DNA of 64,000 bases, from contig CALSNU010000002.1 of NCBI GenBank assembly GCA_943787795.1, positions 672,001 to 736,000 on the forward strand, read 5' to 3'. This document shows positions 41,001-44,000 of the stretch, piece by piece. Position numbers: made by a program. Source of the DNA: an uncultured bacterium (GTDB lineage: Bacteria; Planctomycetota; UBA1135; GCA-002686595). How positions within the stretch are numbered: the first letter of the stretch is position 1; every line of letters starts with the position of its first letter.

Positions 41001-44000
41001 TTCGGGTCGGGCCGGGGGCGGGCACGCCTCGCGGGCCAGGGGTCATTACGGGGCAGCCGTGAGGTTATTCACGGCCGGGCAAGGGGTCCCTGGGGGCCGC
41101 CGGGGCCCGCTCGGCCCATTGGGACCGATTGACGCGCATGGTCCGGGCTTCGGTGCGTAGCCTCGATCGAAGCGGGCCGATAGGTGCCGCAGGGGAGCCG
41201 CCCTCCCCGAACCACTCGCCCCCGCGGCGAAGGAGACCCCAGACATGAACATCCAACGCTCCTCAACGGGGCTCATCGCGGCGCTGGCCGTGGCTGGACT
41301 GACGTCCGCCGCGCTCACGCCCACCGGACCGAACGAGGGCTGGGCTTCATCGAGCATGAAGCACCGCGCCTCCGAGAAGTTCGACTACGTCCTCGGCCAG
41401 GAGAAGTGGCAGTCCCTGGGGGACGAGATCACCCTCTTCGGCCAGGAGTTCCCCGTCGAGATGATCGGCCCCGTGCACTTCGAGATCGACTCGAACGGTG
41501 ACGGCCGGGTCGACCGTGACATCAAGGGTTCCGACGGCTTCGTCGACCTCAAGGGCGAGGACGCCGAGGGCCAGGTCTTCCACTACGGCGTCCGCTTCCG
41601 CAACGACGGCGAGCGCAAGTGGAGCTGGACCGCCTCGGGCGCCATGACCGGCAAGGTCGAGGGGCTCACCATGGCGGTCATCGACGCCAATGCCAACGGG
41701 CGCTACGACGACCTGGGCGTCGACGGCCTCGCCATCGGCAAGGACCGCGGCGCGGGCTACGTCTCCCGCATCGTCAGCATCGACGGCGAGCTCTTCGAAT
41801 TCGAGGTCAACGCCGACGGCACCGAGGTCAAGACCCGGCCCTACACGGGCGAGACGGGCCTCCTCAAGCTCAAGACGATCAAGGGCATCAAGGCCAGCGT
41901 GGTGACGGCCATCGCCCGCCAGGGCAAGGACGTGTCCTTCCAGATCGCCGGCGCCAAGAAGGGCATGGTGGTCCCCGTCGGGGACTACGTCCTCGCGGAC
42001 GCCTTCCTGAAGGGCGGCTCCGAGACGGCGCGGATCCGCATGGGCCGCATGGAGCGGCTGGAGGTGGCCACGGACGGTGAGGTCGAGCTCCAGCTCGGCG
42101 GCCCGCTCGTGGGCGAGGTCCCCACGCCTCGTCTGCAGGACGGCAAGGCGGTGGTCAGCCCCAACGTCCAGGTCTTCGGCTCGCTCGGCGAGGAGTACTA
42201 CGACTTCCAGCCCAAGGGCAAGGTCCCGACCTTCGAGCTCTACGACGCCAACACCGGCAAGCGCCTGCAGAAGGGCAAGTTCCCCTCTGGCTGATGAGGC
42301 TCGGCCCTCCCGGTCACCGTGGGTGTACCGAACCAAACCGACCTTGACGTGATGGTCCTCAGCGAGCGGAAGATGTTCGGCAAGCTGAAGGCGAAACCCC
42401 GCCAACGGAAGGGGCCGCGCTCGCCGCGCTGACGGCTCCACCGATCCCCGCCGGGTCGGGGACCCAGGAATCGAGAGAGGCCCCGCCCAGCGACCACTTG
42501 GCGGGGCCTCTCTCGTCGTTCCAATGGACCGGCGGACAAGAGGTCCAAGGGCGCCATTCTGTGCGGCAGCGGGTCCTTGGGTGAATAGGAGGATGGGAGT
42601 AACGGGCGGGGCGCGGCCCAGGGAAGGGCCGCCGACGCCGGGTTGACCTGGGGCTGGAGAGGAAATGCCAAGCCCGCAGAGCTCGGAGTCCCATGATTAC
42701 GCCCGGACGCCGCACAGTCCAACCACGAGGAGTAGCGGGCGCCCGGTGGGGGACATTGGCTTCGAGGTGGGCCTTGGGCCGTGGAGGGACTCGACTCAGG
42801 CGAATCCAGTTGTGGCTCGGGGCATGCGGGCGCCAACGCCGGGCGCCGACTCCCGGGGCTCGCCGCTCAGGCTGAGGTCGAGGAGGATCTCCCGCGTCGC
42901 GAGCGGGTCCGAGATCGTGGTGACGCGATGGCGGCCCCCGCGACCCTTGGGGTATCGCAGCACGTCCGCCGCGAAGGTCCGACGGAGGAGCTCGGCCCAG
43001 CTATGCGCCCTGCCCGAGCGCAGGGATCGCCCTCGCCGACGTCCCGGTGCCGCGGGGAACCGCGCGGCACGGCGGCATCGCGCGGTGGCGACGAGAGGGC
43101 GAGAACGCCGAGGCACGCCCACCGGTGCTGCCGCGGGTGGGGGACCAAGGCGACGAGCCGCTAGAGGAAGGCGAGAGGGGGGTCGAAGGCGAAGGCTCGC
43201 GCGCCGTCGCGGCGGACGGCGAGCTGGCCTTGCGCGAGGGCGGGGCAAGCGACATTGCGCCCGGGGCGTTTGAGCCGAAGGCCTTCCTCGGCCTCGAGGT
43301 GGATGGCCGCGTGGAGGGGGTCCCGGCCGAGCTTCCATTGAACTCCTCAGGTGGCACGACGTTCGTCTCGGTGGCGCGCAAGCTCACAGCCGGATCGCTG
43401 GCCTCGAAATCCTGCACTCACGCTCGCAATCCGATCTGCTAGTCAGGGCCAGTCATCGGATCGTCGAGTATCGCCTGGGTCCGAATATCAAGCGATGATA
43501 TAGTCTTCAAGACCCTATTTCTGGAGATGCAATCGCACCACAAGAGAGTGAAAAGTGAACGAAGATAGACGCTCCATTTCGGACGAGATTCCGGTTAAGC
43601 GGGAGGGGCTCGGGGAGCAATCGGAGGGTGGCGAGCTAAATTCGAACATCCATTCGGCTGACGCTAAAGTATTCATAATTGGACTCAATAAGACCGGTAC
43701 GACCTTCATGGGCGACCTCTTGTCCAACGCCGGTCTTCGAGTCGAGGGCTACAGCGGCGCAATGCTCATGGAGTACCGCCAGAGTGGATTCACGGACCTT
43801 ATCAAGGATCACATACGCCGGTTCGACGCGTTTCAGGATCTCCCTTGGCCCTTCATGTACAAGCATCTGGTGAATGCTTACCCCGATGCGCTCTTCATAC
43901 TCACCACTAGGTCCAGCAAGGAAGTCTGGTACAACTCAATACGCAGGCACAGCCTGACGTTGAACCCGTTCCATAGCGGCACCAAGTGGGCGTATGGTCT

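Follow-up and report, generated by a model that had tools for sequence, protein, structure and literature searches.

Animal high-Mr thioredoxin reductases (TrxRs) carry a vicinal Cys-Sec pair that is flanked by glycine and forms a selenenylsulfide ring of eight members, on a segment that is flexible and exposed. SELENOL, the known natural diselenide protein, is eukaryotic and peroxiredoxin-like, with a UxxU motif and a SECIS element in its 3′-UTR, and mollusc SELENOP is reportedly encoded with up to 132 UGAs. The canonical bacterial SECIS element (bSECIS), of the E. coli fdhF type, is a stem-loop that begins immediately 3′ of the UGA and has only a few nucleotides in its apical loop. Bacterial selenoproteins with multiple Sec residues include UxxU peroxiredoxin-like and MerA-like proteins, TsoB (UxxxxU), MbdU and a selenobacteriocin (Table 1, PMC13188914). 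These families likewise have two or three UGAs per gene, decoded via bSECIS elements (PMC13188914); none of them is a secreted all-beta protein of the kind described below, and none of the 119 prokaryotic families and subfamilies in the same 2026 catalogue has a UU motif (PMC13188914).

The gene described here lies in a 64,000-nucleotide stretch of the genome of an uncultured marine planctomycete (the window), for which a first-pass annotation had claimed one open reading frame across a tandem TGA. The frame is indeed open: read through, the gene occupies 41245–42432 on the plus strand (395 codons and a terminal TGA) and reads ...KFPSG-U-U-GSALPVTVGVP..., with TGA TGA at 42292–42297 and the residues FPSG-UU-GSALPVTVGVPNQTDLDVMVLSER around the dyad. 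The first in-frame TGA (Sec350, 42292–42294, plus strand) stands 23 nt 5′ of the loop of a SECIS-like hairpin, which is the canonical spacing of the family, and the second (Sec351, 42295–42297, plus strand) stands 20 nt 5′ of it. With translation table 11 the ORF closes at 42294 to give 349 aa, which is where gene callers end it; the database homologues of the window gene are 349–355 aa long, covering 88% of the read-through protein, and in public databases the family is present as shortened 'hypothetical proteins', with all gene calls ending at the dyad. The true stop is the TGA at 42430–42432 (plus strand), and TAG occupies exactly the same position in the orthologues L022 and L024 (94–95% identity). 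The TGATGA is not an assembly error; it is also present in four genomes of 92–95% identity, and all six bases are unchanged both in a separate DNA run of 2018 and in contigs from two RNA libraries, although these contigs are no proof of transcription. The paralogue on contig C1 (L020) has C-U at the same spot, as had been claimed, and reads ...FPGS-C-U-GKGF.... A GC-rich inverted repeat 42 nt 3′ of the stop (42474–42513, strand not assigned; sub-threshold hairpin match F6, 25 bits vs 46) may be a transcription terminator; the terminator scan made no call there because no T-run follows the repeat.

The likeness to TrxR is closest in the clade-A CU forms of the family, which contain a literal G-C-U-G (GGCUGGG), and the ring chemistry is presumed to be similar. 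However, the dyad of the family is internal, ~45 residues from the C terminus, and not part of a C-terminal tetrapeptide; the protein is all-beta and Ig-like, without flavoprotein domains or a Pfam hit, and is probably exported; its SECIS is bacterial and lies inside the coding sequence; and UU, UC, SU and CxxU variants occur. A TrxR-type GCUG centre was ruled out on the position of the motif and on the absence of a pyridine-nucleotide-disulfide oxidoreductase fold. A SELENOL-type protein was ruled out too, since the motif is UU, there is no AhpC-TSA, Redoxin or thioredoxin Pfam hit, and the structure model lacks helices; in contrast to SELENOL, nothing separates the two Sec residues, the SECIS is local and bacterial, and the folds show no relationship. 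The hairpin shares its small apical loop and its position immediately 3′ of the UGA with the canonical bSECIS, but it is short (6–8 bp), has a bulged 3′-side U in many members and, in 22 genes, would serve two adjacent UGAs, one of them at a fixed 23 nt. SoxY offers a lead only: we take its periplasmic, Ig-like fold with a GGCGG arm to resemble the Gly-flanked chalcogen of GGCUGGG, whereas the SoxY motif is C-terminal and that of the family internal. The window protein has no SoxY Pfam match at E ≤ 1, and SoxY is not among the best 50 structural matches listed by VIA-align (best Z 5.6).

The N terminus of the window protein (approximately residues 1–30; 41245–41334, plus strand) is signal-peptide-like, with Arg, LIAALAVAGL and then small residues, and is modeled with pLDDT <50; it contains no Cys and is therefore not a lipoprotein signal. 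Signal-peptide-like N termini were found in 15 of 17 members by a crude rule of hydrophobicity and charge, in agreement with the earlier description of a secreted family, and we infer that the window protein is exported, leaving a mature protein of about 365 residues after signal cleavage. Our structure model is all-beta, with helices absent (pLDDT 86.2, pTM 0.80), and matches the AlphaFold2 result reported in the first-pass annotation (88.6 and 0.82). From the model we propose that a beta domain containing both Asp-rich, Ca-type loops lies at the N terminus and that two Ig/FN3-like sandwiches come after it, with the dyad Sec350–Sec351 carried on a Gly-flanked loop of the last domain. Loop 1, which is Asp/Asn-rich (EIDSNGDGRVDRD, residues 80–92; 41482–41520, plus strand), has D82 invariant and D86 nearly invariant in an alignment of 17 homologues, and presumably resembles a Ca2+-binding DxNxDG loop; the sole Pfam hint for the window protein is EF-hand_5 at E 0.21, below the cut-off. 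In the second Asp/Asn-rich loop (VIDANANGRYDDLGVDG, residues 145–161; 41677–41727, plus strand), D147, G152, G158 and D160 are invariant and N151 and D156 nearly so. The 44 codons after the TGAs (42298–42429, plus strand) would supply the last strands of the C-terminal beta-sandwich (predicted at 357–360, 367–375 and 379–385) and then a basic tail ending GPRSPR, with V361 and F378 invariant and P391 nearly invariant in the alignment of 17.

No relative of known structure was identified, as had been stated before, in comparisons with the PDB by sequence, Foldseek and VIA-align. The best sequence match, an antibody light-chain V domain (E 7.8e-4), reflects generic Ig likeness only, and Foldseek searches with the whole chain and the N-domain gave no match at E ≤ 1e-3. 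VIA-align reached Z 5.6 for the whole chain, with generic Ig/FN3 folds (including superoxide reductase at Z 4.3–4.9), and Z 5.0 for the N-domain; scores as low as these identify neither a fold relative nor a function. Pfam and NCBIfam scans of the window protein were without hits, consistent with the earlier claim that it has no Pfam family. At E ≤ 1 there was no NCBIfam match to SaoC, SaoL, HgcA, MbdU, KCU-star or CopZ-like proteins, assuming that their models are present in the release used (20.0, June 2026), the date of which suggests that models of the catalogue families are included; at E ≤ 0.01 no family matched the paralogue, one clade-A CU form or two CC forms.

The SECIS-like hairpin (42311–42330, plus strand; 7 pairs in the ViennaRNA fold) is composed of a 5′ arm at 42311–42317 (CGGUCAC), a loop at 42318–42322 (CGUGG, alternatively a GUG triloop with a closing C-G pair) and a 3′ arm at 42323–42330 (GUG-U-ACCG) in which U42326 is bulged. 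The minimum free energy is −13.4 kcal/mol for a 43-nt stretch with the hairpin and −18.8 when folding from the first TGA. Published criteria for bSECIS elements are a small apical loop with G in the two leading positions and then G/U, a spacing of 16–37 nt, and ≤ −7.5 kcal/mol (PMC13188914), and the window-gene hairpin (7 bp plus the bulge, loop CGUGG, 23 and 20 nt) agrees with them, as do the hairpins of the family in general. Compensatory pairing, also claimed before, was substantiated, with covariation above that of all 500 shuffles in both structure classes. The six inner pairs of class I are formed in 168/168 cells of 28 distinct rows, three of them changed on both sides (covariation 0.292 vs 0.071 shuffled, 0/500 as high); class II, which includes the window gene, is paired in 92.5% of cells (covariation 0.285 vs 0.163 shuffled, 0/500 as high). 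Its pair 34–42, which couples the first codon position of Thr/Ala to the synonymous third position of Ser, reads G-C in 32 rows and A-U in 20, and no row leaves it unpaired.

Full pairing of the hairpin was found in 88 of 90 Sec forms and in 0 of 10 Cys-only forms; the register of this test (0 or −3) is the better-pairing one, making it slightly circular, and the Cys-only controls stem from just one to two lineages. In each of the two exceptions, L082 and L084, there is a single mismatch and the local MFE is −6.1. The loop, CG[G/U]GN or CGGUG, divides the two groups completely (90/90 and 0/10). The hairpin overlaps a conserved peptide (Y/V-T-V/G-S/G-V-P), and its conservation is therefore partly at the protein level. 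Plain RNA folding of 42280–42360 gave a z-score of 0.24 against shuffles, so that, at the 70% GC of this genome, the hairpin does not stand out by energy alone, and an Rfam scan of 40500–43500 (E ≤ 10) returned no SECIS family and two sub-threshold chance matches only. A genome-wide scan for TGA plus hairpin, tried as a selenoprotein finder, produced 2639 candidates and was useless.

The distance of ~20 nt between TGA and hairpin given in the first-pass annotation was correct as to the presence of the hairpin, but the relationship is sharper: in 90/90 Sec forms the distance from one UGA to the loop is exactly 23 nt, a rule that might partly stem from structural constraints on how long the linker can be. 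The distance is 23 nt in 68 of 68 single-Sec genes, two UC genes reaching it via a linker that is one codon shorter, and the UU genes fall into the registers (23, 20), in 14, and (26, 23), in 8. The MAFFT alignment by itself also gives an invariant TGA column. The UU forms have only one hairpin, as claimed, for both UGAs.

The Sec machinery of the genome is complete, comprising tRNA-Sec (69 bits, anticodon TCA), SelA (457 bits), SelB (350 bits, counting neighbouring matches in the same frame) and a Sec-type SelD (327 bits, itself with one in-frame TGA), and TGA is a normal stop, terminating 2487 of 3169 long open frames. Six known selenoprotein genes of the same genome were examined (four TlpA/Prx-like UxxC, one AhpD-like CxxU, and SelD); five have hairpins, with apices resembling that of the family (CGUGA, CGUGCC, GUG, GUU and GAA) at 24–39 nt, and the SelB of this genome therefore tolerates a shift of far more than 3 nt.

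At E ≤ 1e-10 the window protein finds matches in 75 of the 174 family genomes; the 107 genomes counted previously were obtained with a different query. A profile search matched 1502 representative clusters when the limit was E ≤ 0.001 and 201 when it was E ≤ 1e-30, and of the 401 genomes sampled from the phylum 119 have the family (E ≤ 1e-15), many weaker matches being to shared beta domains only. Among distant relatives, the beta domains are fused to zf-HC2 anti-sigma modules, and outside the phylum a search with P0136 gave nothing beyond weak matches to the Ca loops. At 100 homologous places in 74 related Planctomycetota genomes, the motif column is CU in 61, UU in 22, CC in 8, SU in 4, UC in 2, SC in 2 and TU in 1. 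The CU, UU and CC forms described earlier thus all recur, but they are not the only ones, as SU, TU, UC and SC also exist, together with a CxxU variant elsewhere in the phylum (L124; P0048, P0109, P0136). Nor is C/U-C/U-G invariant, as had been thought: position 1 is Ser or Thr in 7 of the 100 places and UC occurs in 2, and the Gly after the dyad is replaced by Ser or Ala in 3. The relative L125 has TGG (Trp) in the Sec column. In the 8 CC and 2 SC forms the UGA column is aligned with Cys, and Cys-form ORFs, including P0035, P0047 and P0097, run uninterrupted through the motif column.

Conservation beyond the TGAs was likewise borne out, ~45 residues being conserved and the alignment of 17 homologues reaching the C terminus. 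The dN/dS ratio after the TGAs is 0.10–1.01 in 15 pairs (noisy over ~44 codons, with 0.88–1.01 in two pairs), compared with 0.12–0.64 upstream in 13 computable pairs; the two ranges are comparable, and the frame is conserved beyond the UGAs. Taken as a whole, the sequences very probably represent a new, widespread extracytoplasmic selenoprotein family, and the claim that it is new agrees with its absence from Pfam, NCBIfam and the 2026 catalogue of 119 families (PMC13188914). One unnamed 'hypothetical' planctomycete selenoprotein candidate with a Cys homologue in Rhodopirellula (PMC4807772, Table S9) may or may not belong to it. A literature search for adjacent or vicinal Sec-Sec or UGA-UGA decoding, partly swamped and not covering metazoan SELENOP tails, returned no relevant paper.

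The UU form is old and arose more than once. In the tree, 20 UU and 2 nested UC sequences form a clade with an SH-aLRT of 95, and a second UU origin lies within the paralogue clade; the window protein and L048, both within the UU clade, share 36% identity, and one SU form stands beside UU forms.

The best explanation of the whole, to which we assign a probability of roughly 0.78, is an exported all-beta selenoprotein in which UGA-UGA is read as Sec-Sec via one SECIS. We infer from the conserved frame, spacing and hairpin that both codons are decoded as Sec: SelB·Sec-tRNASec, brought in by one short hairpin within the coding sequence, would read the two UGAs, the first of them with the apical loop at the canonical 23 nt. 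One translocation later the hairpin, expected to be still folded, would be 20 nt from the second UGA, and a second SelB ternary complex would then have to bind it. It counts against this explanation that two successive low-efficiency recodings would make the protein costly. It could be argued instead that only one UGA is efficiently read as Sec, while the other mostly terminates or receives Cys or Trp from a near-cognate tRNA, so that the mature protein has one Sec and the second TGA is tolerated rather than selected. Such an arrangement would account for one UGA always being at the canonical 23 nt with the other off by one codon, and it gains from the TGG codon at the Sec column in L125 and from the derivation of UC from UU and the SU form beside UU, according to which one Sec is dispensable. 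We nevertheless consider it improbable, as TGA-TGA is held across a deep clade (20 UU rows) with one change to UC only and has an independent second origin, whereas a tolerated stop would be expected to drift often to TGC or TGG; moreover, with the other selenoprotein spacings of the genome at 24–39 nt, an offset of 3 nt should work.

That no selenoprotein is made, with translation ending at 42294 (349 aa) and the hairpin and tail being a terminator, an attenuator or a separate small ORF, is barely tenable, even though the public gene calls all stop at the dyad. The 44 codons that follow keep the frame, contain conserved residues and encode predicted strands by which the last beta-sandwich is completed; the Cys-only relatives are continuous through the same column; the hairpin is lost exactly where the UGA is lost; a separate ORF would be without a start codon or ribosome-binding logic; and the genome has the full Sec machinery.

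For the Sec-Sec protein that we favor, the functional reading tentatively preferred is an extracytoplasmic redox centre comparable to the GCUG end of TrxR, in which the dyad would cycle between its selenol(ate) state and a diselenide closing an eight-membered ring, with a selenenylsulfide in the CU and UC forms. The SU and TU forms (5/100), in which the vicinal partner is absent, count against a redox dyad. A conserved redox-partner gene was sought near the gene and at homologous loci and none was found, no neighbour being kept throughout; in the window the neighbours are two GT4 glycosyltransferases, a methyltransferase, a sulfotransferase and an S9 peptidase. At 8 of 31 loci (4 genera) the homologue has a sulfatase gene beside it; sulfatases are very abundant in Planctomycetota, and therefore no functional link was drawn. 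As the main alternative, the dyad of the same selenoprotein might be a soft metal or metalloid site (Hg, Cu(I), Cd, As or covalent S/Se species) and not a redox catalyst, displayed by the beta domains in the periplasm or at the cell surface. UU would be the softest possible ligand pair, and the zf-HC2 anti-sigma fusions of distant relatives suggest an extracytoplasmic ligand-binding or sensing fold. Several CU families are annotated as metal- or organometal-related (CopZ-like 2Fe-2S, HgcA, MerB-like SaoL, SaoC and MbdU; PMC13188914). On balance, a metal site is possible but less likely, given that no metal-resistance or transport genes adjoin the gene and that the window protein, two other Sec-dyad members and two Cys-only relatives have no NCBIfam hit. 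The CxxU variant (L124; P0048, P0109, P0136) has the classical thiol-oxidoreductase spacing, but this spacing binds metals too and is therefore weak evidence against a metal site.

Natural vicinal Sec-Sec, together with tandem UGA decoding by one SECIS that would serve twice in a single translocation step, has probably been long kept in an exported protein family that many marine planctomycetes share. If so, this would be the first natural protein found with adjacent selenocysteines, within the literature searched, and a natural case of one bacterial SECIS serving two neighbouring UGAs. The fixed 23 nt, the (23, 20) and (26, 23) registers and the UC and CU forms as single-Sec controls constitute a ready-made natural spacing experiment, which bears on the recycling of SelB at the paused ribosome and on the engineering of multi-Sec and diselenide proteins in bacteria. 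In chemical terms, a diselenide that has a very low potential, resists oxidation and is placed outside the cytoplasm would add a new type to the extracytoplasmic redox or metal sites.

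The window gene begins at 41245 on the forward strand and, under translation table 11, ends at the TGA at 42292–42294, giving a protein of 349 aa. A second TGA (42295–42297) directly adjoins the first and is followed in the same frame by 44 further open codons until a third TGA at 42430–42432. The read-through protein has 395 residues, with the motif region ...KGKFPSG-U-U-GSALPVTVGVPNQTDLDVMVLSERKMFGKLKAKPRQRKGPRSPR (U, selenocysteine), and its paralogue on another contig of the genome (C1; 30% identity) has ...FPGS-C-U-GKGF... at the equivalent site. The tandem TGA is not an assembly error, because it is kept in four same-genus genomes (92–95% identical), in a contig from an independent 2018 seawater DNA run (spanning 41716–42395, with four differences, none of them at 42292–42297) and in contigs from two metatranscriptome libraries (42169–42600 and 42178–42337, zero differences), which signify presence in an RNA library rather than proof of transcription. 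The database homologues come from MAGs and are named 'hypothetical protein [Planctomycetota bacterium]'; the close ones, at 349–355 aa, span 88% of the read-through protein and are therefore cut at the first TGA. The first-pass annotation had proposed a new secreted selenoprotein family with a vicinal Cys-Sec or Sec-Sec pair, and its observations on the frame, the tandem TGA, the hairpin and the conserved downstream region are borne out and extended here.

The organism is equipped to make selenoproteins. Its genome (4.7 Mb, 8 contigs, 85% complete, 69.6% GC) encodes a tRNA-Sec (69 bits against an Rfam cut-off of 47; anticodon TCA) together with selB, selA and selD, the last itself with an in-frame TGA. 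UGA is an unreassigned stop codon in this organism, since TGA terminates 2487 of 3169 long open frames genome-wide and the terminal TGA of the window gene is replaced by TAG in two orthologues (L022 and L024). For comparison with the new family we took four TlpA/Prx-like genes (WUGPC, WUPPC), an AhpD-like gene (CHYU) and SelD from the same genome. Hairpins lie downstream of the UGA in five of the six; their apices are CGUGA (38 nt), GUU (39 nt), GAA (29 nt), CGUGCC (24 nt) and GUG (33 nt); a simple search found no hairpin for one TlpA-like gene. The commonest loop of the new family, CGUGA, therefore also serves a classical UxxC selenoprotein gene here. The four AhpC-TSA/TlpA-like genes, all outside the window (C4:789449-789799, C1:753587-753940, C6:69274-69621 and C2:496583-496939), each have one in-frame TGA in the motif W-U-G/P-P-C and probably encode Sec-containing thiol:disulfide oxidoreductases; three have a clear hairpin 28–39 nt past the UGA, one with the CGUGA loop. 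The CMD/AhpD-like gene (C4:327345-327497, reverse strand, also outside the window) reads C-H-Y-U, has a 7-bp hairpin with loop CGUGCC 24 nt past the TGA, and is probably another selenoprotein gene.

A search of 174 genomes from the taxonomic family with the window protein found matches in 75 at E ≤ 1e-10. Motif typing covered 100 of the 103 places listed; the other three were an N-terminal fragment located at a contig end and two weak, partial hits. The two adjacent codons read CU in 61 places, UU in 22, CC in eight, SU in four, UC and SC in two each, and TU in one. The earlier statement that C/U-C/U-G is invariant proved too strong, because this census has exceptions: the second position is indeed Sec or Cys in all 100 places, the first is Ser or Thr in seven, and the following residue is Ser or Ala in three. 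Two of the five S/T-U forms (L087 and L096) have Cys two residues after Sec (S/T-U-G-C), where the partner thiol may have been relocated. A profile searched against 1.84 billion representative proteins returned 1502 at E ≤ 0.001, 201 of them at E ≤ 1e-30. The best 150 of the 1502 were sorted crudely: 103 stop at or shortly before the motif column (64 of them with a terminal Cys, hence CU forms truncated at the UGA), five run on continuously as CC or SC forms, and the other 42 are fragments or of other kinds. The endings ...FCES, ...MCLG or ...MCLS of some library proteins suggest CxxU variants, and one such variant (L124) was confirmed at the DNA level. In a sample of the phylum, 119 of 401 genomes matched at E ≤ 1e-15, and many weaker matches span the first two domains only, within longer proteins. 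One relative of the CxxU/CU subgroup (L125, G286:C747) has TGG (Trp) at the Sec column at the end of its match (...GTMVLG-W-FGF...), with no Cys near this site, and may represent a UGA-to-UGG escape from Sec.

A short hairpin of one of two structural classes lies downstream of the motif in every Sec form. Class I has 6–7 continuous pairs (GUACAC / GUGUAC and variants). An alignment of 30 sequences (28 distinct) has all 168 cells of the six inner pairs formed, and three of these pairs have changes on both sides (G-C to C-G; U-A to G-C; A-U to U-A or G-C); the covariation score of 0.292 compares with 0.071 in shuffles, none of 500 scoring as high, and slid controls paired in at most 64% of cells. 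Class II, found in clade B and in the window's genus, has three pairs separated from a further 4–5 by a bulged U in the 3′ strand. In the alignment of 53 of its 60 sequences (seven near-duplicates omitted), 92.5% of cells are paired, the outermost pair accounts for almost all of the remainder, and the covariation score is 0.285 against 0.163 in shuffles (0/500 as high). Pair 34–42 (32 rows with G-C, 20 with A-U, none unpaired) joins the first base of a Thr/Ala codon to the third, synonymous position of a Ser codon, a coupling that is hard to explain by selection on the protein. The apical loops of the 90 Sec forms are CGUGA (54), CGUGG (11), CGGGC (10), CGGGA (7), CGGUG (5), CGUGC (2) and CGUGU (1), and hairpin and loop fit the published model of the bacterial SECIS (bSECIS). 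Two controls, the Cys-only relatives and the hairpins of the same-genome selenoprotein genes, speak for a SECIS and against a by-product of the encoded peptide. Complete pairing of the hairpin is seen in 88 of 90 Sec forms versus none of 10 Cys-only forms, a control set that stands for one or two evolutionary events only; the loop motif is present in 90/90 versus 0/10, and the mean local MFE is −10.0 versus −5.25 kcal/mol.

All 68 single-Sec genes have exactly 23 nt between the end of the UGA and the loop. CU, SU and TU forms have UGA as the second motif codon; the two UC forms have it as the first and a motif-to-hairpin linker that is shorter by one codon, which restores the 23 nt. Both nucleotide alignments made by MAFFT, blind to this rule, have a TGA column without variation, and the same 23 nt recur in other families of the phylum, among others in the CxxU form L124 (...TMCLS-U-GGNP..., hairpin CUACUC-CGGCG-GAGUAG) and in the CU forms L126–L129. 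Each UU gene has one hairpin only, with one UGA at the canonical position and the other displaced by one codon: at 23 and 20 nt in 14 of 22 genes, including the window gene, and at 26 and 23 nt in the other eight. The 3-nt offset should be within reach of SelB, because other selenoprotein genes of the organism use spacings of 24–39 nt. We infer that SelB·GTP·Sec-tRNASec on the hairpin would decode the first UGA; the ribosome would then move three bases, the hairpin staying folded with its base still at least 13 nt ahead, and a second ternary complex would bind the same hairpin and decode the second UGA in competition with RF2. In E. coli, SelB departs from the SECIS after GTP hydrolysis. As a separate observation, three genomes belonging to a single genus (L044, L045, L049) have a peptide-chain release factor gene (PCRF and RF-1 domains) next to their CU-form gene, on its upstream side; this is a curious neighbour for a UGA-recoding gene, but probably mere synteny within that genus.

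A quick maximum-likelihood tree of 98 rows (two short rows removed) resolves two paralogue clades, A (47 rows, including the window gene) and B (51 rows, including the C1 paralogue). Within clade A, a subclade with SH-aLRT 95 unites 20 UU rows and two UC rows nested among them, covering genera with proteins down to 36% identity to the window protein (L048); the CU portion of the clade encloses the CC and SC forms. Clade B has a separate UU pair (L104 and L114) adjoining an SU form. Given this subclade and the independent pair, the tandem TGA has thus been long kept, has at least two origins, and within the old clade changed only once, to UC.

The region after the motif is alignable in all forms, with V361 and F378 invariant and P391 nearly so, and in the AlphaFold model of the window protein three strands from this region complete the last domain. 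Over the 40–55 downstream codons pairwise dN/dS is 0.10–1.01 (15 pairs), noisy values that are probably inflated because the hairpin lowers dS; upstream of the motif it is 0.12–0.64 (13 computable pairs). Clade A proteins end (window 42382–42429) in a tail rich in Lys and Arg, where the motif (G/A/N)-P-x-(T/S)-P recurs; clade B lacks it.

By a crude rule, 15 of 17 aligned members have a Sec-type signal-peptide-like N-terminus; the other two have a hydrophobic stretch without a preceding Lys/Arg, which may be an artefact of start-codon choice. The AlphaFold2 model of the window protein (17-sequence alignment; pLDDT 86.2, pTM 0.80) is all-beta, with residues 1–30 disordered, an N-terminal domain (~34–200; pLDDT 92.5 when modelled alone) and two Ig/FN3-like sandwiches (~202–285 and ~288–387), the dyad lying in a loop between strands 340–345 and 357–360. 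The 17-member alignment shows invariant Asp and Gly in two Asp/Asn-rich loops of the N-terminal domain, loops that resemble Ca-binding DxNxDG loops; the only Pfam hint for the window protein is a sub-threshold EF-hand_5 match. Pfam and NCBIfam have no family for the window protein, its paralogue, a CU form or two CC forms, and no solved structure matched the window protein convincingly by sequence or fold. Two of the longer relatives, anti-sigma-like library proteins of ~615 aa (P0154 and P0169), have two zf-HC2 anti-sigma zinc-finger motifs, a membrane segment and a Pro-rich linker, followed by the family's beta domains lacking any Cys or Sec dyad; the fold evidently also serves as the outer part of anti-sigma-like sensors.

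The window gene stands alone in what looks like a polysaccharide-modification cluster, with two GT4 glycosyltransferases and a class-I methyltransferase upstream (within 35036–38299), a sulfotransferase downstream (43555–44337) and an S9 peptidase of 848 aa (46246–48792). The only recurrent neighbour elsewhere is a sulfatase (PF00884), directly adjoining the homologue in eight of 31 loci from four genera (L031, L036, L040–L042, L046, L047 and L050). Planctomycetota are said to be sulfatase-rich, and the adjacency may be chance.

For the dyad we tentatively prefer a role as a redox centre (probability roughly 0.4), because Sec or Cys is present in all 100 places and has a chalcogen neighbour in 95, the clade-A CU forms spell G-C-U-G, the tetrapeptide of thioredoxin reductase, a CxxU variant exists, and in two of the five S/T-U forms a Cys stands two residues past Sec. 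Relatives of TlpA-like proteins are usually periplasmic, and it is speculation that the Sec-containing TlpA-like proteins of this genome could be the reductants. A binding site for a soft metal, metalloid or sulfur species is somewhat less probable; it would accord with the metal or organometal proteins among CU-motif selenoprotein families, of which there are several (PMC13188914), and with the same beta domains forming the outer part of anti-sigma-like sensors. Some other function takes the rest of the probability.

A full-text literature search for vicinal or adjacent selenocysteines and for UGA-UGA returned no relevant paper; metazoan SELENOP tails, which lay outside the comparison, would in any case use a distant 3′-UTR SECIS. 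The passages retrieved from the BSepDB paper and from a 2023 review do not mention adjacent Sec. A May 2026 review counts 119 prokaryotic selenoprotein families and subfamilies, and in its accessible part the motifs include UxxU, UxxxxU and CU, with no UU, and no entry fits the window protein (PMC13188914). The known natural diselenide protein is eukaryotic SELENOL, with the motif UxxU (PMC13134290). A 2016 planctomycete study has, in its Table S9, one unnamed 'hypothetical' selenoprotein candidate (PMC4807772), which might be a family member.

Both UGA codons of the window gene are putative Sec codons, and the single covarying SECIS hairpin in its fixed 23-nt register is the sole predicted recoding signal present. 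The window gene is placed by the tree in an old subclade with UGA at both dyad positions, and by every sequence-based criterion the family is a genuine, widespread and uncatalogued selenoprotein family of Planctomycetota.
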